A stretch of DNA of 64,000 nt from Candidatus Woesearchaeota archaeon. Lineage in GTDB: Archaea; Nanobdellota; Nanobdellia; SCGC-AAA011-G17; GW2011-AR20. The DNA lies in contig CAYQPR010000001.1 of NCBI GenBank assembly GCA_964419925.1, positions 34,865 to 98,864 on the forward strand. Direction: 5' to 3'. Under the pieces are notes generated by a model. That model did no database searches, was not told the origin of the DNA, and saw only the letters and a program-made list of their open reading frames with translations. This document shows, piece after piece, positions 17,026 through 59,546 of this stretch; position 1 is the stretch's first letter, and the number at the start of each line of letters is the position of its first letter. The translations under genes and the position numbers were made by a program.

Positions 17026-20000
17026 ATGAAAAAAGGAGTTTATGTTATTGTTTTATTATTGGTTTTATTTTCTGCTTATTTTTTAATTAATGTTTTTAGT
17101 GAAGAGGTTGTTGGAGGAAAGGTTAAAACAAATAATCAAGATTCTCAGCCACAACAAAATATGATTAATTATATACAAAAATCATTAACAAATATTAATT
17201 ATAATAAGATTATAACAACTTCTAATGCAGAACAAGAATTAAGAAATTATATGGGCACTTTAAATATAAATGATGAACATTTTAAGTTAGATAAAATTAC
17301 TCAATTCAAGAATAAATTATTTGTTTATTTTGATCAATATTATAAGAATATTCCAGTTTATAATTCTAAGAACGTATTTTATGTTAATAATGAAAAACTA
17401 AGTTTTACAAAAACAAATTATTATGGTAAAATTAATTTAGATGTTAATCCTAATTTAAAAGAAAACCAAATTGATGATTTAATTAAAAATAAAAATTTTC
17501 TAAACCAATTTGAAAATAAATATTATGATATTATTGGAAATGAGAGAAGGTATGATTTTTCTAAAATTAATTTAGATCAAATCAAAATAGATAAAAAAGA
17601 ATTACTCATTTATCCTAAAAATGATGAATACTACCTAAGTTATAGACTAGTTATTAATCATAAAGATTTTGATTTAACTTATTTTATTGATGCAAATACC
17701 GGGGGGATATTGGATATAAAAGATAATAGAATTTACTATGATGTTTCTGGAACAGTTATAGGGAAGGAATGGGAAGATCCTTTTACAGGGGGAACACAAT
17801 TGGAAAAACCATTTCAACACAACTATATTGGTATTGGTGAAAATCAAATTGAAACTGATGAAAATGGTTATTATTATATATCAGATTTGAATGGATTAAC
17901 TAATCTTGAATCTTATTTATCTGGACCGTGGGTAACTGTTTATAATTCCCAATTAGAAGAATCAAAACATCTTTCTTCCTTTAGTGATAACTCTCAACAT
18001 GATTGGAACTGGGATTTAGATGATAACTCTTATTTAGATGAAGAGAGTAATGTGTTTTACCACATTAATCGAATTCATGATTATGCGGTTTCTATTGGAA
18101 CTGTCGAATTATCTCATTTGCCCGCCACAGTAAATCATGATAATCATTGCAACGCATTTTACTCACGTTACAATAGTTATGGTGTAAATTTTTTTGAAAA
18201 AGGTGATATTCAGGTTGAAGATTTCTTTTTTCCAGAAAATAATTACAATCTTACGTGTGAAAATACCGCATTAATTAATGATGTGGTTTTACATGAATAT
18301 GGACATTACATTATTGATGAATTAGACCCATTACTTTATGATCTTTCAAGTGATTCAAGATTAGATGCAGGGAGAATGCATGAAGGTTTAGCTGATTATT
18401 TTGCATGCGATTTAAATAACAACACAAATTTGGCAGAGGGATTTTATGTAAATGTTACCCGCCCAGTGATTGATATTTCGTTGCCACTTCGAACGTGCAA
18501 TAGTGGAAATCGTTATCCGAAAGATTACGGCAAAGAGATACATTTCGGAGGTAAGATCATATCAAGTTCTGTATTTAGTATAAGGGAAAAAATTGGTAAA
18601 GAGCAATTAGATCCAATTTTGATTAATGCTTTGAGACTCCAACCAACTAATTTTATAGAGTTGTTAGATTCATTAATAATTGCCGACGATGATAATAATA
18701 ACATACTTGATGGGACTCCTCATATAGTAGATATCTGTACTTCTTTCTATGATCATGGGATACTTTCAGATTATTGCATTGGATTTACCAGCAAACCTAT
18801 TGCACATATAGATGAGATTATTCAATCAGTTAATGAAGATCCAAAAATAATATCTGGAAAAATAAATATAAAAGGAACTGTATACCCATCTTATCAATCT
18901 ACATTAGAGAGATACATAATTAGTATTGGAAATTATTCGGTAACATTTCAAAATCCAAATGGTATAAAAAAAGATATTTTAAGTTATAGTTTTGATACCT
19001 TTCATGTAGATGACGGTACCTATAATCTTAGTTTAATCGCAATAGATTCTAACGGTTTTATAGAAAGTGATAACTTCAAGATTTATATTGACAATAAATG
19101 GCCAATAAATTTAACAGTTAGACCAGATTATGGTTTTTCTACTGGTTCTCCTGTGGCATTTAATCTTGATAATGATGCTGAAGATGAAATCTTGATTAGT
19201 GTAGTGAAGACAAATAACCCTGGAGAAAAGCTTAGTTATTATCTTTATGCATTTAAGAGTAATGGGAATCGTCTAGAAGGATGGCCAAAAAGGTATAGTA
19301 ACTTTGAAATAAACCCTCAAACAGCTGGAACGAGTATTAGTAATATACCCGATCCGTCTATTGGTGATTTAGAAAATGATGGCAATAATGAGATTGTGAT
19401 TTCAATCGGTAATTTATTAGCAGTGTTAAATTTAAGTGGAGATGTTAAATGGTCAAAAAGTCTTGATGGATATTCATATGCTAGTCCCGTTTTAGCAGAT
19501 TTGTTTAATGATGGAAAGTTAGAAATTATTATTACCCAAAATTTCTTTGACACTAGGACGGTTCCTCCACTCTTAAATTCGAGCCTTATTGTTTATGATT
19601 CAGAGGGCACAATAAAATGGCAAAAAAAATTTGAAAATTATTTTATTGGAGATAGTTATTCAACGATGGGCGATGTTGATGGAGATGGGCATAAAGAAAT
19701 TGTTGTTGTTATGTATAACATTAATGAGTTTAAAAGCAAAATTTATATCTATAATAAAAATGGCGTTCTATTGGAAGGATGGCCAAAATTGATTGAAGGC
19801 ATAAGTAAGGCTTCGTCCCCAATTTTAGCAGATATTAATCATGAGAATAAATTGAGTATATTTTTTGGTGCATCAAGAAAATCGCATTTGCAAAATAGTT
19901 ATCAATACACAATTTATGGATTTTCTTATAATGGAATTAGTTTAAATAATTGGCCTATAAATTTGTCAAGACCTTCATTCTATAACCGACATATTTTTTC

Positions 20001-20925
20001 TATGAGTGACTTAGATGAAGATGGTTATCCTGAAATTGTTGTACCTCTTGATAAAATTTATATCTTGAACAAAAATGGTACTGTTAGAAGTATTCTAAAT
20101 GATACTAATTCAAGATTGGCATACTCTTTTAATATTGGTTCTGGTGTTTCAGATATAGATGGTAACGGAGATAAGGAAATTGTTATTAATACTGGAGAAG
20201 GATCAAATCTTCGTAGTATTACAATATACAAAGATACCGGTGAGATAATCTCGAGTTGGCCAAAACAATTAAATGGATTTGCCAAATCCAGCCCATTAAT
20301 ATCAGATATCGATAAAGACAAAAAAATAGAAATTATTGTAGCGACAGAATTAGGATCATTATACTTTTTTGAACAAGACACCTCAATTAATGAGTATCAA
20401 TTTGATTGGCAAATGTTCCGACATGATGTTCAACATACAGGACAATTTGATAATAAGGATAAAAACATTAAAATTATTAATCTAGTTAAACCGGGTTCTT
20501 TAAAGGTTGATCAAACAGGAACATTCATATGGTCCTCCATCGCTCAAAGTTTTAAAAATAATACCATTTTGTGGGACATTAAATGGACGGGCCCAATTGG
20601 AATTGGTTCTGGTCTTAAAGGAACATGTCAAGATAGATTTTGTTTTAATTATTCAGCCATTCAAAAATGGACAAAACCAGGAAAATATACGATTACGGCA
20701 AAAGTTTCAAATGGTTTAAACTCGGATACAAATATTGCTGAAATTAATGTTGGAATGTGTTCGGATGGTATGCTCTATGGTTCATGTTCTAAAACAAAAC
20801 CAAATTATTGTAATAGCAATGGAAAAATAATTAATAATTGCCAAAGATGTGGCTGTCCTCGTAATTTATTGTGTCAAAAGAATGGAAGCTGTAAAATCGG
20901 AAATGATTTACCAAAAACTAATTAA
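17026..20925 (+). CDS. large exported zincin (HEYGH gluzincin-like) plus FG-GAP/beta-propeller repeat surface protein with a Cys-rich C-terminus
   Basis: N-terminal signal/anchor, HEYGH...EGLADYF metalloprotease motif, at least 7 repeats of the form D(L/V)D(G/E)DG..EIVV (integrin-alpha/FG-GAP-like), and a C-terminal Cys-rich tail. Confidence 0.6.
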   Translation: MKKGVYVIVLLLVLFSAYFLINVFSEEVVGGKVKTNNQDSQPQQNMINYIQKSLTNINYNKIITTSNAEQELRNYMGTLNINDEHFKLDKITQFKNKLFVYFDQYYKNIPVYNSKNVFYVNNEKLSFTKTNYYGKINLDVNPNLKENQIDDLIKNKNFLNQFENKYYDIIGNERRYDFSKINLDQIKIDKKELLIYPKNDEYYLSYRLVINHKDFDLTYFIDANTGGILDIKDNRIYYDVSGTVIGKEWEDPFTGGTQLEKPFQHNYIGIGENQIETDENGYYYISDLNGLTNLESYLSGPWVTVYNSQLEESKHLSSFSDNSQHDWNWDLDDNSYLDEESNVFYHINRIHDYAVSIGTVELSHLPATVNHDNHCNAFYSRYNSYGVNFFEKGDIQVEDFFFPENNYNLTCENTALINDVVLHEYGHYIIDELDPLLYDLSSDSRLDAGRMHEGLADYFACDLNNNTNLAEGFYVNVTRPVIDISLPLRTCNSGNRYPKDYGKEIHFGGKIISSSVFSIREKIGKEQLDPILINALRLQPTNFIELLDSLIIADDDNNNILDGTPHIVDICTSFYDHGILSDYCIGFTSKPIAHIDEIIQSVNEDPKIISGKINIKGTVYPSYQSTLERYIISIGNYSVTFQNPNGIKKDILSYSFDTFHVDDGTYNLSLIAIDSNGFIESDNFKIYIDNKWPINLTVRPDYGFSTGSPVAFNLDNDAEDEILISVVKTNNPGEKLSYYLYAFKSNGNRLEGWPKRYSNFEINPQTAGTSISNIPDPSIGDLENDGNNEIVISIGNLLAVLNLSGDVKWSKSLDGYSYASPVLADLFNDGKLEIIITQNFFDTRTVPPLLNSSLIVYDSEGTIKWQKKFENYFIGDSYSTMGDVDGDGHKEIVVVMYNINEFKSKIYIYNKNGVLLEGWPKLIEGISKASSPILADINHENKLSIFFGASRKSHLQNSYQYTIYGFSYNGISLNNWPINLSRPSFYNRHIFSMSDLDEDGYPEIVVPLDKIYILNKNGTVRSILNDTNSRLAYSFNIGSGVSDIDGNGDKEIVINTGEGSNLRSITIYKDTGEIISSWPKQLNGFAKSSPLISDIDKDKKIEIIVATELGSLYFFEQDTSINEYQFDWQMFRHDVQHTGQFDNKDKNIKIINLVKPGSLKVDQTGTFIWSSIAQSFKNNTILWDIKWTGPIGIGSGLKGTCQDRFCFNYSAIQKWTKPGKYTITAKVSNGLNSDTNIAEINVGMCSDGMLYGSCSKTKPNYCNSNGKIINNCQRCGCPRNLLCQKNGSCKIGNDLPKTN

Positions 20926-53361: not shown

Positions 53362-53433
53362 CGCCCTGACCGGGATTCGAACCCGGGTTGCTACCGTGAC
53401 AGGGTAGAGTCCTAACCACTAGACTATCAAGGC
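53362..53433 (-). tRNA. tRNA-Asp (GUC)
   Basis: Hand fold: GCCTTGA-TA-GTCT-AGTGGTTA-GGAC-T-CTACC-CTGTCAC-GGTAG-CAAC-CCGGG-TTCGAAT-CCCGG-TCAGGGC-G. Confidence 0.8.
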
Positions 53434-53459: not shown

Positions 53460-54107
53460 TTAAAGTTTGTTATTTAAACCCTGGATGAGTTTTTCTTGTT
53501 TTCTTTTAAGATTAAATCCAATAAGTTTACTAAACTTTTTAACTTCCTTTTTTCTATTTACAACGATTGCAAAGACGTTTCTTTTTAAACCATATCCTTT
53601 AGCTAGTCTGGAATAAATACCAAATTTTTCTAATAAACTTTTTAGCTGTAAAAGACCTTTTTTATTTATAGAATATAACCTAATTTCAATACTATTTGTT
53701 TTATTATTACAAATTACCGAACCTTCGTCGTCATAAAATGCCCTTAGGAATTCTGTTTTAATTTTATTACTTGACTTTTTTATTTGATTTGGTAAACTCC
53801 AATTATAGGATCTATAATTTCCATATCTTAGTAAGTCTTCATAAACTTTTTTTGAATATAAATTAACAAATGGTATCCATTCATTTGTTTTTCCAGAAGG
53901 ATTTAATCCTCTTGTCATTTTTAGCCCATATACTAAATAAATATCTTTTTCAAAATTTTTTAACGATTCTTCGTCTTTGACTTCGTATCTTATGCGATAA
54001 TTATGTCTGCTTTTATTTATCGAACCATCTGCCATAAGTCTTGCGATTATTCTTGCTTTTGGAATTGAAAGCATAAAACTATTTTGACGAATAAGATTTA
54101 TTCTCAT
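53460..54107 (-). CDS. free-standing LAGLIDADG-type homing-endonuclease-like protein (two motifs)
   Basis: IIARLMADGSI and LRAFYDDEGSV match the two LAGLIDADG motifs at ~100-aa spacing. Confidence 0.5.
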   Translation of the reverse strand: MRINLIRQNSFMLSIPKARIIARLMADGSINKSRHNYRIRYEVKDEESLKNFEKDIYLVYGLKMTRGLNPSGKTNEWIPFVNLYSKKVYEDLLRYGNYRSYNWSLPNQIKKSSNKIKTEFLRAFYDDEGSVICNNKTNSIEIRLYSINKKGLLQLKSLLEKFGIYSRLAKGYGLKRNVFAIVVNRKKEVKKFSKLIGFNLKRKQEKLIQGLNNKL

Positions 54108-54199
54108 TATCTAATAAAACAAATTTTTATTTATAAATCCGACCCGCGAGGTTGTCACTTGGACAGTTGGGAAATAAAGTGTATTTTAGAGAATATAAA

Positions 54200-54351
54200 T
54201 CCCCACAGCCGGATTTGAACCAGCGACCTCACGGGATCTGCTGTCTGTTTTTCATTCCTGGTCAAAAACCTTAGGTCAAACAGCGCTCTTTTAAGCTACA
54301 GCCATCTAAGCCATATTTTATATGTGTGCTCTACCGCTGAGCTATGTGGGG
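54200..54351 (-). tRNA. intron-containing tRNA (~80-nt insertion between D-arm and variable region); anticodon not resolved by eye
   Basis: Perfect 5' CCCCACA-TA-GCTC-AGCGGTA-GAGC ... and 3' AGGTC-GCTGG-TTCAAAT-CCGGC-TGTGGGG-A halves, with the acceptor stem pairing across 152 nt. Unusual C1-G72 pair. Confidence 0.5.
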
Positions 54352-54392
54352 AATAGTAAGTTACAAATAAATTTATTTATAAATCTAACTTT

Positions 54393-55004
54393 TTAGAGAC
54401 AAACTCTATTTTCACTGCAGCCATTACAATAATCTTCAAAAACAAAAACTCTATTTTCACATTTTAATAAACAACCTTTATTTTCACAATTTTCCAAAGG
54501 ATATTGAAGTGAACATACTTCTTCATCATTTATAGGATCACATGTTTTATCAATGTAAACTTTATTGTTTATTTTTGTTATAAATATCTCATTACCTGGA
54601 GAAAAATATAAACTATCTCCGTTTTTATCTACATTTACATTTGTTGCCATTAATTTTGCATAATCAACTTTATTAAAGTTTATGCTTAACTCTCGATTAC
54701 CTGTCCCTTTTAGATTCAAAGAATATTCTTGTTTATTTATTTTATTTGGCAATGTTAATATTTTAGTGTATCCATTTTCAACTCTTGAAGCAATGTTTAT
54801 CTCATTTCTTAAACTTTCTAATAAATCGGTTCCTGCAATAGTATCCCTTCTTTTAAAAGTTAAGTTGAAATAATTATATGAAATTACTAAATAAACCGTT
54901 AATAAAATAAAGGCAGCTGCGACAAAAAATATAAATTCAGTTGATACCTGGCCTTTTTTCATTTTAAGTACATTCACAGTTTGCATCACTGCATGTTTTT
55001 TCAA
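54393..55004 (-). CDS. archaeal type IV pilin-like protein (class III signal peptide) with a Cys-rich C-terminal domain
   Basis: KKGQVSTEF followed by a hydrophobic helix matches the euryarchaeal prepilin peptidase site (KGQ|xSxEF). The probable start is the Met 14 codons in. Eight Cys in the last 50 aa. Confidence 0.55.
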   Translation of the reverse strand: MKKHAVMQTVNVLKMKKGQVSTEFIFFVAAAFILLTVYLVISYNYFNLTFKRRDTIAGTDLLESLRNEINIASRVENGYTKILTLPNKINKQEYSLNLKGTGNRELSINFNKVDYAKLMATNVNVDKNGDSLYFSPGNEIFITKINNKVYIDKTCDPINDEEVCSLQYPLENCENKGCLLKCENRVFVFEDYCNGCSENRVCL

Positions 55005-55512
55005 TTATCCATACACTATTTTCACATTTTAATTGGCATGAACTTCCTTTGCAAGCTTTATAACTTTCTGGAGTTTTACATTCTAAATTGTTATCTTCAC
55101 ATGGAATTTGAACTAAAACACTATCGCCTAAAGATTTTACAACTATTTTTTTCTTGCCTTGTGTTAATGGAATTTCCCCATATGAGAATAAATTTACCTC
55201 GGCTTGCTTTACAATGTCTATAATTTTTCCTTCTTTATTTCTAATTTTAAAAATAACTTCTTTATTGTTAAAACTTATACTTTCAATATTTTCTGGAAAA
55301 TTAGTATCAATCACTAATTGATTACCTTCTCCATAAACATAAACCTCATTTGCTTTTTTGCTTATTTCGTTTGCTATTGACGAAACTTTTGCTGTTGTAA
55401 TTGAATAATCACTTTCGTTTGAATATTTTACATAGATGTAGGTTATTGGAATCATAATGAGAATAACTAGTCCTGCAACAACTAAATATTCTGTAGCAAC
55501 TTGCGCTTTCAA
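54964..55512 (-). CDS. archaeal type IV pilin-like protein, paralogue, with a Cys-rich C-terminal domain
   Basis: MKAQVATEY plus hydrophobic helix. Its C-terminus shares the C(Q/L)LKCEN(S/R)V(W/F) motif with the neighbouring pilin. Confidence 0.55.
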   Translation of the reverse strand: MKAQVATEYLVVAGLVILIMIPITYIYVKYSNESDYSITTAKVSSIANEISKKANEVYVYGEGNQLVIDTNFPENIESISFNNKEVIFKIRNKEGKIIDIVKQAEVNLFSYGEIPLTQGKKKIVVKSLGDSVLVQIPCEDNNLECKTPESYKACKGSSCQLKCENSVWIIEKTCSDANCECT

Positions 55513-55565
55513 GATATCACCTCTTAAATATTAATTAAAATTAGTATATAAAACTAATCTTTTAT

Positions 55566-55919
55566 TTAAATGAGATTTCTTTCTTCTCTCCATTCGTTTA
55601 CTTTTAATTTGCAATACTCTTTGAAATTTGGATGATCATCTAAACCCAACCCATAATATTTCCAAACAATTTTTTTATTTTCAAAAGTTAGAACCTCAAC
55701 TCTTTCTAAGTCATTTACAGGAATATTAAAATAATCATCTAGAAATCTTATTATTGCTTCTGTGAAACCATTTTTATAACTAAATCTATTTTCTTTTGCT
55801 ATATTTTTAAAATTTTCAAAGTAATGCGATAAGGCTAACTTTTCACCCCATGTTAATTGGAAACCATAAATGTCCTCTATCCATCTTTCCCCCGCTTTTA
55901 ATTCCTTAAAATTAGTCAT
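55566..55919 (-). CDS. hypothetical cytoplasmic protein in the pilin/ABC operon
   Basis: 117-aa ORF, 1-nt spacing to the upstream gene. Confidence 0.3.
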   Translation of the reverse strand: MTNFKELKAGERWIEDIYGFQLTWGEKLALSHYFENFKNIAKENRFSYKNGFTEAIIRFLDDYFNIPVNDLERVEVLTFENKKIVWKYYGLGLDDHPNFKEYCKLKVNEWREERNLI

Positions 55920-55920
55920 T

Positions 55921-56634
55921 TTATATATCTTTAAAAAAATTATGAAATTTAATCAAATCATCAATTAAATTAGTTTCTTCTAAATTTTTAGTAATTTTTC
56001 TTAAACCTATTTTACTTCCGGTGTAAATTGGAGATTGATTAAATTGAGTTGTTAAAACCGTTTCAAATTCATGTATTAATCTTGGAAACGCGTTATAGTA
56101 TTCACCCTCGTGTTTTATATTTCTAATATCTATTTCTCTGAATGGTTTATTTATTATTGATTTGGCTAATTTTCTTGATAAATCTAAAACTTCATTTGCA
56201 GTGAATACCGTTATTTCATCTTTAATTGCATCTATCTTCCATTCATCTCCCTCTTGAACGTCTAAATATTTTAATAATAATTCTTTTGTAGAAAATATCC
56301 CTCCAAGATAAAATTCTTTTTTTATAATATAATGTCCATCTACCTTATTCAAATTTATTGATCCAATACCTAGAATTGGCGGAAATAAATTTTTATATTT
56401 ACTGTCTCCTAAACTTTTGCTTCCAATTAAAGTAAACAATCTATGAATATCACTTTTATCTTTTTTGAATCCATATTTTGTTATGAATGAATTATCATTA
56501 TTTTCTGATTCTTTGTAATTAATATTAATTCCATGAGTTAATAAATTTAATTTTACTGAAATTAAGCAAGATTCTAAATCTTTTATTTCTTCCTTTGTAA
56601 ATGCTTGATAAATTGTTTTTGCCATTTTATTCAT
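55921..56634 (-). CDS. hypothetical cytoplasmic protein in the pilin/ABC operon
   Basis: 237-aa ORF overlapping the permease gene by 8 nt. Confidence 0.3.
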   Translation of the reverse strand: MNKMAKTIYQAFTKEEIKDLESCLISVKLNLLTHGININYKESENNDNSFITKYGFKKDKSDIHRLFTLIGSKSLGDSKYKNLFPPILGIGSINLNKVDGHYIIKKEFYLGGIFSTKELLLKYLDVQEGDEWKIDAIKDEITVFTANEVLDLSRKLAKSIINKPFREIDIRNIKHEGEYYNAFPRLIHEFETVLTTQFNQSPIYTGSKIGLRKITKNLEETNLIDDLIKFHNFFKDI

Positions 56635-57811
56635 ACCTTAATGCATCAACTGGTTTTAATTTTGAAGCTTGATATGCCGGCAAAAATCCCGAAAGCATTC
56701 CGATAACAAATGCAAAAAATAATCCAAACAACAATAAAGGAAGTTCTAATTTAACACTTAATAAAAATCCAGCACTTTTAGCAATTGTTTGCGTTGAAAA
56801 AGCAATTATAACTCCCAAAGAGGTTCCAAAAAATCCACCAACTAAACCCATTAAACCAGATTCGATTAAAAATATTTGTAAAATGTCTGAATTTCTTGCA
56901 CCAATCGCCTTCATTACTCCAATATCTTTAGTTCTTTCTAAAACGCTTGTGTACATTGAATTCATAATTCCTATTGCTCCGACAACTAATGAAATTAAAG
57001 CTATTCCAACTAAGACCACTTGCATTATACCCAAGACCTGATTTATTTGTTCTAAGATTTGTGTTGCTGTTAATACTTGAAAATTAGTATCATTTCTTTT
57101 TCTTTCCAATTCTTTTTCTATTTTCTTTTGTAATTCAGGTATATCTGAAGCAGATTTAACTTGAGCTAAAATTGTATCAACTTTATCTTTTTCATTAAAA
57201 ATATCCCTCGCATCTTCTAAAGAAATTCCAATTTGATTATCATCTTGGCTACTTCCTGTTTCTTTCCAGATTCCTATAATTTTAAATTCTTTTTTATTTA
57301 TCTCTATTTTATCCCCAATTCTTAATTCTTTTTTGAACATTTCTTTTGAAACCCTTGAACCAATTACCGCAGAATATTTATCATGTTCTTTAATCATTCT
57401 TCCTTGTTCCAACTCTCCACCAGAATCTTTTATGAACTGCTCATAACCTTTTGAGGGGATTGCATTAATTAAGGTAAATCCCGTTTCTTTATTTTTTTTA
57501 ACTTCAGATGATCTAAACAATGCAGGAGTCACATATTTAAAACCCGAAATTTTTTCTATGGTCTCTACATCTTCTTGTGTTAATCCTTGTGAGGCCGATC
57601 CTGGACCCTGAAATCCTTTTGCTGAGATTATAATTCTATTTGCACCAAATGTTTCAAATTGTTCTTTAATTGAGTTTTCTAAACCTCTAGAAATCATCAT
57701 TAAAGAAATGATTGAAGCTACCCCAATAATTATTCCAATTATTGTAAGCCATGATCTTAGTTTTCTATGTATTATGCTATTTACAGCAAAAGCAAAATAA
57801 TCTCTAATCAT
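56627..57811 (-). CDS. ABC transporter permease, MacB/FtsX type
   Basis: N-terminal TM, large extracytoplasmic domain, C-terminal 3-TM FtsX bundle (MKAIGARNSDILQIFLIESGLMGLVGG). Confidence 0.8.
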   Translation of the reverse strand: MIRDYFAFAVNSIIHRKLRSWLTIIGIIIGVASIISLMMISRGLENSIKEQFETFGANRIIISAKGFQGPGSASQGLTQEDVETIEKISGFKYVTPALFRSSEVKKNKETGFTLINAIPSKGYEQFIKDSGGELEQGRMIKEHDKYSAVIGSRVSKEMFKKELRIGDKIEINKKEFKIIGIWKETGSSQDDNQIGISLEDARDIFNEKDKVDTILAQVKSASDIPELQKKIEKELERKRNDTNFQVLTATQILEQINQVLGIMQVVLVGIALISLVVGAIGIMNSMYTSVLERTKDIGVMKAIGARNSDILQIFLIESGLMGLVGGFFGTSLGVIIAFSTQTIAKSAGFLLSVKLELPLLLFGLFFAFVIGMLSGFLPAYQASKLKPVDALRYE

Positions 57812-58631
57812 GTTTTTTCTTTTTTAATTTTTTGTAAATGAAGAAAATTAATATGATGATTAATATTGGAATTAAGATTGTTAAAAGACTACTTTGTTTT
57901 ACTAATCCTAATTGTTTTGCTTCTTCTTCACTGTAAACTTTTAGTGTTAAATATTTGTTTTCTGTAAACTCGTTGTTATTAGAATCTTTGTAATTAATCA
58001 TTAAGTTTAACTGAGGATTCTTAATCTTTGGAATTATGTTGTATTCTGCAGTTTCAAAATCATCTACATCAATCTGTCCGATATAAATTGAATTTGGAGA
58101 TAATGATTCGTAAGCTTGACTATCCTGCAATGTTATCTTTAGGAACTTTATTTGACTTAATCCATTATTAATTAATTTTAATGTTACTTTTCCGTTATCA
58201 TTTATTTTTACTAATGTTGATTCTTCTAAAATTAAATCTAATTTTGCTTTTGCATTTACTTCCAAGCTAATTAATGAATCTTTTGTGATGTTATCGTATG
58301 ATATCTTTATTGGAATTTTATATATTTGTGATTCTGCACTTGGTAAAGCAACTAAATCAAAATAGATTATAACTTGGTCTTCATCATTGATCTCATCAAT
58401 TATTTTTTCTGTTGAAGATCTTAATGGTGCAAAAGGAACTTGTGATAAATCCAATTTGACTAAGACATTTTTAATGTCTTGATCTCCAACATTTTCTAAT
58501 ACCACTTTTAATTGAATTGATTCTCCTGGTGAAACTTGACTAGGAAATGTTTCAAACGAACTGATTGCTATTTGTGCATTTACAAATGGCATTAATAACA
58601 ATGCTAATATTATTGTGATTATTTTTTTCAT
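57804..58631 (-). CDS. exported beta-rich protein with a C-terminal TM anchor (COG1361/CARDB-like partner of the FtsX permease)
   Basis: Signal peptide, ~230-aa beta-strand-rich ectodomain, C-terminal TM followed by KKLKKKKHD. Confidence 0.45.
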   Translation of the reverse strand: MKKIITIILALLLMPFVNAQIAISSFETFPSQVSPGESIQLKVVLENVGDQDIKNVLVKLDLSQVPFAPLRSSTEKIIDEINDEDQVIIYFDLVALPSAESQIYKIPIKISYDNITKDSLISLEVNAKAKLDLILEESTLVKINDNGKVTLKLINNGLSQIKFLKITLQDSQAYESLSPNSIYIGQIDVDDFETAEYNIIPKIKNPQLNLMINYKDSNNNEFTENKYLTLKVYSEEEAKQLGLVKQSSLLTILIPILIIILIFFIYKKLKKKKHD

Positions 58632-58873
58632 ATTTCTTCCTCCATTGCTTCCGGGTCTAGAAAAAATTCTAAACTTTTTGGAAACTCTTCATTGCTAGTA
58701 TTTAATTTCCATAATAATAATTCGACATTTCTATCAATATATTCTTTGTTTTTTTCAGAAAATGTCATAAATTGATTATCATTTTTTAATTCTTCAAATA
58801 ATTTATAATTTTCTGATTTGTATACTGATTCATATAGATTTTCTTTATTTTTATAAAACAAAACTGCATCCAT
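58628..58873 (-). CDS. small hypothetical protein
   Basis: 81 aa, between the ATPase and the exported protein, with overlapping stop and start. Confidence 0.3.
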   Translation of the reverse strand: MDAVLFYKNKENLYESVYKSENYKLFEELKNDNQFMTFSEKNKEYIDRNVELLLWKLNTSNEEFPKSLEFFLDPEAMEEEI

Positions 58874-58874
58874 T

Positions 58875-59546
58875 TTAACTCGCGATCCTCCCGTCTCTTA
58901 ATTTTATGATTTTATTTCCTAATTTTGTTAATTCAGGATTATGTGTAACTAAGATTATTGTTTTTCCTTTTTTATTTAAATTTTTCAATAAAGCCATGAT
59001 TTCATCTCCGGTTTTAGTATCTAAGTTTCCTGTTGGTTCATCAGCTAAAATTATTTCTGGATCATTTACTAAGGCTCTTGCAATCGCAACTCTTTGTCTT
59101 TGTCCGCCGGATAATTGACTTGGTAAATGATTGGTTCTATTTCCTAAACCAACTAGTTCTAAAACATCTTTGGCTTTTCTTAATTTAATATTTCTTGGAA
59201 CATTTTGAAATGTCATAGGTAAAATTACATTTTCTAATGCAGTTAAACTTGGAATGAGGTTAAATGTCTGAAATATAAAACCAATTTTCTTTCCCCTTAT
59301 TTGAGCTAAATCACTTTCGTGTAAATGAGCAATATTATCTTTTTCTAAATAAATTTCACCTTTTGTTGCAGTGTCTAGACATCCAACCATGTTCATTGCT
59401 GTACTTTTTCCAGAGCCTGAAGGACCCATTATAATTGCAAAGTCTCCTTTATTGATATTTAATGAAATTCCATTTAAAGCAGGAACTTCAACTTCGTCTA
59501 ATTTGTATATTTTATATACTTCGTCTAATTTGATTAATGTAGTCAT
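58875..59546 (-). CDS. ABC transporter ATP-binding protein (MacB/LolD-like)
   Basis: Walker A GPSGSGKST, signature LSGGQRQRVAIARAL, Walker B ILADEPTGNLD. Confidence 0.9.
   Translation of the reverse strand: MTTLIKLDEVYKIYKLDEVEVPALNGISLNINKGDFAIIMGPSGSGKSTAMNMVGCLDTATKGEIYLEKDNIAHLHESDLAQIRGKKIGFIFQTFNLIPSLTALENVILPMTFQNVPRNIKLRKAKDVLELVGLGNRTNHLPSQLSGGQRQRVAIARALVNDPEIILADEPTGNLDTKTGDEIMALLKNLNKKGKTIILVTHNPELTKLGNKIIKLRDGRIAS

Follow-up and report, generated by a model that had tools for sequence, protein, structure and literature searches.

The A-B Locus

A 64,000-nucleotide stretch of contig CAYQPR010000001.1 from a Candidatus Woesearchaeota archaeon, referred to here as the window, encodes two adjacent pilin-like proteins, A and B, each of which ends in a small cysteine-rich module. 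The window is AT-rich (~28% GC) and carries housekeeping genes of archaeal type, among them a split RNA polymerase B, EF-2, and gyrase. Gene A is an open reading frame (ORF) of 182 aa at positions 54964..55512 of the minus strand, and its product is organized as a leader, an alpha-1 helix, a beta domain, and the Cys module. Residues 1-60 (55333..55512, minus strand) comprise an N-terminus resembling a class III signal, with a hydrophobic segment and a long alpha-1 helix, as judged from the family motif and an AlphaFold2 (AF2) model. Residues 61-136 (55105..55332, minus strand) are predicted from the AF2 strands to form a Cys-free globular beta domain, the pilin head. Residues 137-182 (54967..55104, minus strand) constitute module A, PCEDNNLECKTPESYKACKGSSCQLKCENSVWIIEKTCSDANCECT, whose eight Cys and borders were recognized by alignment, profile, and AF2. 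Gene B, identified as an ORF and from its homologues, lies at 54393..54962 of the same strand and encodes a 189-aa paralogue of A (MKKG / QVSTEF...). Its module, delimited by alignment and profile, comprises residues 140-189 (54396..54545, minus strand), TCDPINDEEVCSLQYPLENCENKGCLLKCENRVFVFEDYCNGCSENRVCL, and also contains eight Cys.

By sequence comparison, A and B are shown to be full-length paralogues. BLASTP aligns the two proteins end to end (E = 2e-7), and hhalign matches the A-family and B-family profiles over their full length (probability 98%, E = 2e-13). A collection of 5.8 billion proteins contains 18 homologues of A, every one of which possesses a Cys tail, and about 18 homologues of B.

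The organization of the locus suggests a single transcription unit. The best start for gene B is the ATG at 54962, only 1 nt past the stop of A, so B is probably co-transcribed with A; an alternative 203-aa form of B that begins at a TTG overlaps gene A. On reading the sequence, a TATA-box-like TTTATATA is found at 55545..55552 (minus strand), ~33-40 nt 5' of the start of gene A, and a TTTATATACTAA element is present at the matching distance 5' of A orthologues in eight or more loci. It is probable that the TTTATATA box serves as the A-B operon's own promoter. A Shine-Dalgarno-like GAGGTGAT (55516..55523, minus strand) stands 3 nt ahead of the TTG start of gene A, and GAGGTGAT precedes the start codon in every A orthologue inspected.

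The start codons of the A family are unusual. The window copy begins with TTG (55510-55512), and at least eight orthologues begin with ATT, directly after an in-frame stop and GAGGTGAT (L002 5543, L006 6001, L024 7460, L026 7668, L017 7433, L011 1459, L030 544, and L032 391, where L numbers denote related loci). As a consequence of these ATT and TTG starts, gene callers choose internal starts and remove the signal peptide, and because of this truncation the databases do not reveal that the family is pilin-like. Proteins P0012-P0015, for instance, are annotated from internal starts ('MVILIAIPL' or 'MLYIKY') and have lost the signal peptide. The weak start codon may also mean that A is of low abundance, which would hint at a subunit of low stoichiometry.

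Pilin-Like Features of A and B

The N-termini of the two proteins, MKA / QVATEYLVVAGLVILIMIPITYIYV in A and MKKG / QVSTEFIFFVAAAFILLTVYLVISY in B, resemble class III signals (QVATEY and QVSTEF, respectively), with a Glu at position +5. The motif K-[AGS]-Q-[VI]-[SA]-T-E-[FY], together with a hydrophobic stretch of ~20 residues, is present in all homologues of A and B, including the N-termini initiated at ATT. The FlaFind-type motif used to recognize archaeal type IV pilins comprises a [KR]-[GAS] cleavage site and then a hydrophobic segment of ~20 residues, and both A and B conform to this pattern. Family members also give weak matches to the Pfam models Class_IIIsignal, DUF7266, and DUF4320, in keeping with a pilin-like N-terminus. 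The AF2 model of A (pLDDT, the predicted local distance difference test, of 80.7) consists of a helix over residues 3-60 (58 residues), five strands (65-72, 76-91, 97-109, 119-127, and 132-135), and then the module, and thus has the helix-then-beta-domain arrangement of a pilin as far as prediction goes. The assignment of A and B as pilin-like proteins rests on the N-terminal motif and this predicted helix-plus-beta architecture, from which cleavage of the signal would be expected.

The Eight-Cysteine Module

All eight Cys of each protein fall within the last 45-49 residues and none are found elsewhere, against a background of 0.87% Cys in the ORFs of the window. An earlier note on this DNA, made by reading its sequence, had drawn attention to this Cys-rich tail and to the similar segments CQLKCENSVW and CLLKCENRVF, which are indeed both present and identical at 7 of 10 positions. 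The same note had proposed that a conserved module extends beyond this short motif, and alignment of the Cys spacing bears this out. The spacing C2-x8-C3-x4-C4-x3-C5-x10-C6 is the same in A and B, and an alignment of 32 modules from relatives retains seven invariant Cys columns as well as a Trp that is at least 90% conserved. The module is 46-50 residues in length and has the consensus C1-x5-8-C2-x6-13-C3-x3-8-C4-x3-C5-x4-W-x5-C6-x2-8-C7-x1-11-C8. When the module profile was compared with the six-frame translation of the window, only the ORFs of A and B matched (E = 4e-13 and 1e-11), and the next score was 0.5. An AF2 model of the module alone (pLDDT 87.2) possesses three strands, the last two of which form the hairpin C-x-L-x-C-x-N-x-x-W-x5-C.

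The module had initially been suggested to be either disulfide-stabilized or metal-binding. The first of these is now favored, and the module is probably a fully disulfide-bonded extracellular domain. The number of Cys in the tails of the family is 0, 4, 6, 8, 10, 14, 28, or 32, that is, even in all 31 Cys-bearing tails, while the cores are free of Cys. These even counts, not all of which are multiples of four, the predicted extracellular location, the absence of CxxC or CPxCG knuckles and of a conserved His from the module, and the variable length of the loops between Cys all favor disulfides. A natural six-Cys variant of B (L010/P0021) ends after C6 and lacks exactly C7 and C8, which suggests that these two residues pair with one another.

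In the alternative, the eight Cys would bind metal, either as two Zn(Cys)4 sites or as an Fe-S centre, and the extracellular module would be metal-dependent or redox-active. Eight Cys would suit two tetrahedral sites, many DPANN habitats are anoxic, and a precedent is provided by a 2026 study of 'dark' domains in archaea, which read some small eight-Cys domains as metal binders (PMC13607799). Such a role is nevertheless very unlikely. Besides the missing knuckles and His, the spacings between Cys vary widely (5-8, 6-13, 3-8, 2-8, and 1-11), the natural variants with 6, 10, and 14 Cys are not multiples of four, and AF2 folds the module with confidence in the absence of metal. The paired CxxC/CxxH knuckles and multiples of four Cys that characterize zinc ribbons and treble clefs are likewise not found here.

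Relationship of the Module to Known Domains

Searches of the domain and structure libraries did not assign the module to any described Cys-rich family; a match to a common family of this kind is what the earlier note had named as a refutation. Whether the query was a module, a whole protein, a family alignment, or a divergent variant, nothing significant was returned from Pfam-A, NCBIfam, or the PDB sequences, where the scattered matches, all sub-threshold, were to KIAA0319_N, Meleagrin, Dickkopf_N, CBM_19, Bubble, and ArlG. In Pfam-A, the best E-values for the module were 0.04-2.7, each from a single member. The NCBIfam search found no match to the module. A profile search of the PDB with the module reached a best E of 0.84, to a Sushi hairpin only, and a Foldseek search of the module model against the PDB and BFVD gave a best E above 1. 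The suggestion that a knottin- or EGF-like pattern might emerge was not borne out by structure prediction and Foldseek. Membership in the EGF, knottin, Sushi, TSP1, CBM14/18/19, WAP, and PSI families was rejected in the absence of a significant hidden Markov model or fold match and on the basis of differences in spacing.

Some general similarities to these families do exist. The C-x4-W-x5-C spacing of the hairpin is that of Cys III-Trp-Cys IV in Sushi/CCP domains (PF00084), and both Sushi and TSP1 domains were picked up weakly. Like Sushi, EGF, knottin, and TSP1 domains, the module would be a small, beta-rich, disulfide-stabilized extracellular unit that can occur in tandem. In contrast, it possesses eight Cys with a C-x3-C pair, whereas those domains possess four or six with family-specific spacings.

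The module is also rare. When its profile was run by HMMER over 1.84 billion cluster representatives with a cut-off of E <= 1e-3, eight proteins were recovered, four of which belong to this pilin family and include multi-module forms. The other four are a eukaryotic TSP1-repeat protein, a Sushi-repeat protein, and two exported repeat proteins of GC-rich bacteria. The eukaryotic TSP1 and Sushi proteins (P0040 and P0043) were rejected as homologues, with a likeness limited to the Cys/Trp hairpin or to composition. A homology search with the 32-module alignment returned 13 candidates, none of which scored, and the A-family pattern was present in 1 of 185,579 GTDB species representatives. Within the reach of these searches, the module seems to be confined to the A-B pair of a narrow clade of 'Nanoarchaeota' (DPANN), which, to judge from the names of the records, has been sampled largely from 0.1-um groundwater fractions. 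By the sequence searches made, it is a new domain family.

The two bacterial proteins, P0041 and P0042, matched the profile with E-values of 1.7e-5 and 2.5e-5 against 1.84e9 proteins. Both are exported proteins of GC-rich bacteria, one of them a lipoprotein, with three to four tandem repeats of ~50 aa that each contain six Cys (C-x7-C-x9-C-x-DG-x-W-x5-C-x-G-x-x-G-C-x8-C-D), and neither belongs to a Pfam or NCBIfam family. The repeats and the archaeal module share the core L-x-C-x-[DN]-G-x-W-x5-C-x-G-x-x-G-C and an occurrence in tandem on exported proteins. Unlike the archaeal module, however, the repeats lack C1 and C4 and are not joined to pilin-like N-termini, and the hhalign probability is 46%. 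They may represent a distant bacterial counterpart of the module. If the two are homologous at all, the simultaneous absence of C1 and C4 suggests that these residues pair in the archaeal form.

The tail of a third protein in the window was noted earlier as loosely similar. This 1299-aa exported protein, recognized as an ORF and by Pfam (17026-20925, plus strand), contains FG-GAP/beta-propeller repeats (E = 1.4e-19), a weak PKD match, an HEYGH zincin (HExxH) motif, and weak M36/FTP/PepSY matches. The similarity holds in that its tail (20760-20925) has eight Cys in 50 aa. It does not extend to their arrangement (C-x8-C-x8-C-x9-C-x2-C-x-C-x6-C-x6-C, with 'CQRCGCP'), and with the module profile it reaches a score of -1.1 bits, even at Z = 1. 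With this score, its different spacing, and its absence from the six-frame matches, it was rejected as a third copy of the module. The tail itself has no match in Pfam or the PDB.

Variation of the Tail Among Related Loci

More than 30 loci were gathered by a metagenome scan with the B-family alignment and by contig look-ups, and profiles of the core and of the module were used to survey their tails. A and B occur in tandem in all of the loci recovered, even in L007 and L031, where the genomic context is different. The tail, in contrast to this constant pairing, is a separable domain. Among the B-family homologues, 8 possess the tail and 11 end right after the beta domain, and of 22 distinct B orthologues, 13 lack module B in this way. 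Most loci encode an A with a single module. Four tandem modules are found in the A proteins of L007 (P0039) and L033, and a fragment from L009 (P0038) contains at least 3.5; A carries other, divergent Cys-rich tails in L025, L031, and L029 and no tail in L032. The tail of B may be absent, a single module, a divergent form with 14 Cys (L025), or a split module (L017/L018). Therefore, the family has the makeup of a modular pilin, in which a pilin moiety is joined to a separable extra C-terminal module: B occurs with or without it, and A has 0, 1, or 4 copies.

The split module provides a particular example of this plasticity. In L017/L018 (8016-9086), a B-type pilin of 356 aa contains an insertion of ~175 aa between C3 and C4 of the module, indicating that this loop is an exposed site of insertion. 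The inserted sequence is unannotated and has a weak VIT match (E = 0.012).

In the distant pairs of L025 (2604-3677 and 4888-5673) and L031 (171-845), the tails contain 14-28 Cys and go unrecognized by the module profile. These long tails end in a second motif, ...[GL]-x-x-C-C-D, which may mark another small Cys-rich unit.

Evolution of the Module

While its Cys framework is constant, the remainder of the module is hypervariable. Columns of the beta-domain core have a mean identity of 0.68, against 0.25 (A) and 0.36 (B) for the non-Cys positions of the module, and when A proteins were compared in pairs, conservation was lower in the module than in the adjoining core in 276 of 276 cases. Three close A genes (L002, L034, and L035) are especially informative. 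Their cores differ by 0.23-0.28 synonymous substitutions per site (dS) and 0.02-0.03 non-synonymous substitutions per site (dN), and their modules by a dS of 0.9-2.4 and a dN of 0.18-0.72. The Fisher p-values for module vs. core range from 1e-3 to 4e-7 for synonymous changes and from 1e-6 to 4e-20 for non-synonymous changes. In sliding windows, a nucleotide identity of 0.90-0.98 in the core of A gives way, exactly across the module, to one of 0.43-0.75, and values of 0.9-0.98 are regained in gene B. The module thus stands out as a hypervariable cassette with sharp limits, set in conserved DNA. The elevated dS points to exchange, or to the long persistence of divergent alleles, beyond a faster rate of amino acid substitution. 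For the modules of B, the proportion of non-synonymous differences (pN) is four to five times that of their core, and the proportion of synonymous differences (pS) is similar.

Hypervariability that is restricted to the 3' end of a gene for a surface protein is also what would be expected if the module were the variable region of a target of a diversity-generating retroelement (DGR), and DGRs are common in DPANN archaea. This explanation was rejected and is effectively refuted for the DNA at hand, leaving it a negligible probability. The window does not contain a copy resembling a template repeat, and its sole repeat is a 34-nt stretch, 79% identical, common to the modules of A and B. No reverse transcriptase is present in the annotated flanks of L002-L005. 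Moreover, the alleles differ by indels and at positions that break an invariant length, and these are not products of DGR mutagenesis.

Genomic Neighbourhood

The pair usually has a MacB-type ABC transporter cluster on one side and the RNA polymerase operon on the other. In the window, the cluster (56627-59546, minus strand) encodes an ABC ATPase, an 81-aa protein, a 275-aa CARDB-like protein with a signal peptide and a C-terminal transmembrane helix, and a permease with MacB_PCD and FtsX domains. It is found 5' of the pilin pair in most related loci (L002-L006, L012, L017, L024, and L026) and is missing in L007 and L031, where the pair lies elsewhere. The two ORFs between the cluster and gene A (55566-55919 and 55921-56634) are not conserved. 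Based on the pair's own TATA box and ribosome-binding site and its different position in these two loci, the synteny probably reflects lineage history rather than function. A functional link with the MacB/ABC/CARDB-like cluster was set aside on the grounds that the pair has a conserved promoter of its own and occurs without the cluster.

Just 3' of gene B is a tRNA-like gene (54199-54352, minus strand) with a CCCCACA/TGTGGGG acceptor stem, canonical D and T arms, and ~60-75 extra bases. It is missed by default ARAGORN and by Rfam; when introns are allowed, ARAGORN reads it as a tRNA-Leu(CAG) with a 59-nt intron and a weak anticodon stem. Between this intron-bearing tRNA and a tRNA-Asp (53362-53433) is a free-standing ORF (53460-54107, minus strand) that resembles a LAGLIDADG_3 homing endonuclease (Pfam E = 8.5e-15), and a homologue occupies the equivalent place after the pilin pair in L006 (7305-8063), a contig of a related metagenome-assembled genome.

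A Model for the A-B Pair

It seems moderately likely that A and B are a modular type-IV-pilin-like pair of a DPANN archaeon, probably minor or tip subunits, that bears a disulfide-framed and fast-diversifying display module. According to this model, the hydrophobic N-terminal helix would insert A and B in the membrane, and a prepilin-type peptidase would probably cut after K-A in A or K-G in B, leaving Gln1 and Glu5. The alpha-1 helix would then anchor or pack the subunit, with A and B most likely forming a pair of low-abundance subunits, minor or at the tip, of a pilus-like filament; the machinery for this filament would be encoded elsewhere in the genome. The helix would be followed by the small Cys-free beta domain, on whose last strand the 46-50-residue module would be grafted. 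The module itself would be a three-stranded mini-sheet around the hairpin, made rigid by four disulfides. With this framework held constant, the loops would carry the function, most likely recognition of or adhesion to a ligand on a host cell or in the environment. They would diversify through substitutions, indels, exchange of whole cassettes between strains, tandem multiplication from one to four copies, and the insertion of a domain.

Several results weigh against this reading. Neither protein reaches the gathering score of 23.7 for Pfam PF04021 (Class_IIIsignal), for which B scores 14.1 bits (E = 0.047) and A gives no match. Within the A family as well, the matches to Class_IIIsignal are all sub-threshold (3 of 18 members, best E = 0.0075). 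The leader would be just 3-4 residues long. A Foldseek search of the PDB with the full-length model of A had a best E of 0.1 and found no similar structure, whether a pilin or any other, and profile searches of the PDB sequences with the whole proteins found no solved pilin or archaellin relative. A pilus ATPase, a TadC-like platform protein, and a prepilin peptidase were not found in the 64-kb window, and the same three genes were not found within ~8 kb of the pair in any of the related loci. Lastly, the ratio of dN to dS (omega) of the module is 0.17-0.59 overall, below 1, so that positive selection is suggested but not proven; relaxed constraint combined with recombination would yield similar numbers.

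Some of these results would fit surface proteins that are anchored in the membrane and never polymerized, with an N-terminus that is either of the class III type or an uncleaved signal anchor, and a module that forms a stalk or binding tip. Proteins of this kind would resemble the sugar-binding proteins of Sulfolobus that carry class III signals. The lack of assembly genes next to the pair in any locus, its own promoter and usual position beside the MacB-type ABC transporter/CARDB-like cluster, and the failure of Foldseek to find a pilin are all consistent with this possibility. However, it is fairly unlikely, in view of the 58-residue N-terminal helix and the Glu5, both hallmarks of filament-forming pilins, and of the absence of the ABC cluster around the pair in L007 and L031. 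Furthermore, archaea commonly have stand-alone pilin genes at a distance from those for the machinery (PMC4858521).

The low omega could also be explained if the module were a mere structural cap at the C-terminus, analogous to the disulfide-bonded D-region of bacterial pilins, and its variability the outcome of relaxed constraint. In favor of this possibility, the many B orthologues and the one A orthologue that are tailless indicate that the tail is dispensable for the core function. For a cap, neither four tandem copies nor an inserted domain of 175 aa would be expected, nor would a sharp-edged divergent cassette with raised dS between genes that are 90-98% identical. Relaxed constraint is also difficult to reconcile with seven Cys columns and a Trp that are invariant, or nearly so, in all 32 modules. 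Based on this evidence, a role limited to capping is unlikely.

For a display module on a pilin-like pair, a role in adhesion or recognition gains indirect support from the hypervariable non-Cys positions, the divergent cassette, the range of 0-4 copies, and the inserted domain. Ultrasmall cells from groundwater have been observed linked to their hosts by pili-like appendages (PMC7906910). Given the groundwater setting of these DPANN archaea, recognition of a host or substrate would be the most attractive function. A stronger proposal would see in the module a new disulfide-rich fold by which the pili of ultrasmall DPANN episymbionts recognize a host or ligand, and which diversifies as whole cassettes are exchanged between co-existing strains, as the number of copies changes, and as domains are inserted; this proposal is tentative and somewhat doubtful.

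Comparison with Known Modular and Variable Pilins

In its architecture, the pair follows a known theme, of which it is a new variant from the Archaea. Modular pilins have been described in bacteria, such as PilB of Streptococcus sanguinis with its vWA module and PilC with its lectin module (Raynaud et al., 2021; PMC8179133; PMC9934059). As in PilB and PilC, a pilin moiety is joined to an unrelated C-terminal module that is separable, with orthologues that possess or lack it, and that can be multiplied. The proteins are also similar in that they are probably low-abundance or tip subunits with partner minor pilins. Unlike PilB and PilC, A and B are archaeal, and the published census was built on the bacterial IPR012902 signature. 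In addition, their module is not a large known fold but a tiny (46-50 aa), probably disulfide-rich domain without a match in the libraries, and it is hypervariable between strains.

The view expressed in the earlier note, that pilins normally lack Cys clusters, is too broad. Bacterial type IVa pilins possess a C-terminal disulfide loop, and in PilE of Neisseria the hypervariable, disulfide-bounded C-terminal D-region is varied by recombination with pilS cassettes. As in this D-region, the most variable part of A and B is an exposed C-terminal segment framed by Cys on an otherwise conserved pilin, and the raised dS and sharp borders of the module suggest an exchange of cassettes similar to that of PilE and pilS. 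Unlike PilE, in which two Cys form one loop, the eight Cys here would form an autonomous domain. Neither the window nor the flanks of the related loci yielded a silent copy of the cassette, and there is no sequence relationship between the two.

Multiple conserved Cys, proposed to form stabilizing disulfides, are also present in components of the type IV pilus loci of Thermoproteales (Makarova et al., 2016; PMC4858521). The Thermoproteales components and the A-B pair are alike in being archaeal proteins, pilus-associated or pilin-like, with multiple conserved Cys. In the former, however, the Cys are spread through proteins of hyperthermophiles encoded inside pilus loci. In the latter, which belongs to a mesophilic DPANN lineage with AT-rich DNA, they are concentrated in a discrete domain at the C-terminus, and the genes lie away from any pilus locus.

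Significance

The A-B locus carries the idea of the modular pilin over to the Archaea and adds a domain family that is not in Pfam, NCBIfam, or the PDB. It also provides evidence of systematic mis-annotation, in which ATT and TTG starts are missed and the signal peptide that marks these proteins as pilins is lost. If the module were only a stabilizing cap, the locus would add little to what is catalogued of the surface proteins of archaea. No recognition determinant has so far been defined for the attachment of DPANN archaea to their hosts, and the locus offers a concrete candidate. The candidate cassette is the only fast-evolving part of the pair, can be swapped and multiplied, and can serve as the scaffold for an inserted domain. 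If the module is indeed a recognition cassette, it would represent an archaeal counterpart of receptor and antigenic variation in pilins and would provide a handle on how DPANN archaea choose their hosts.

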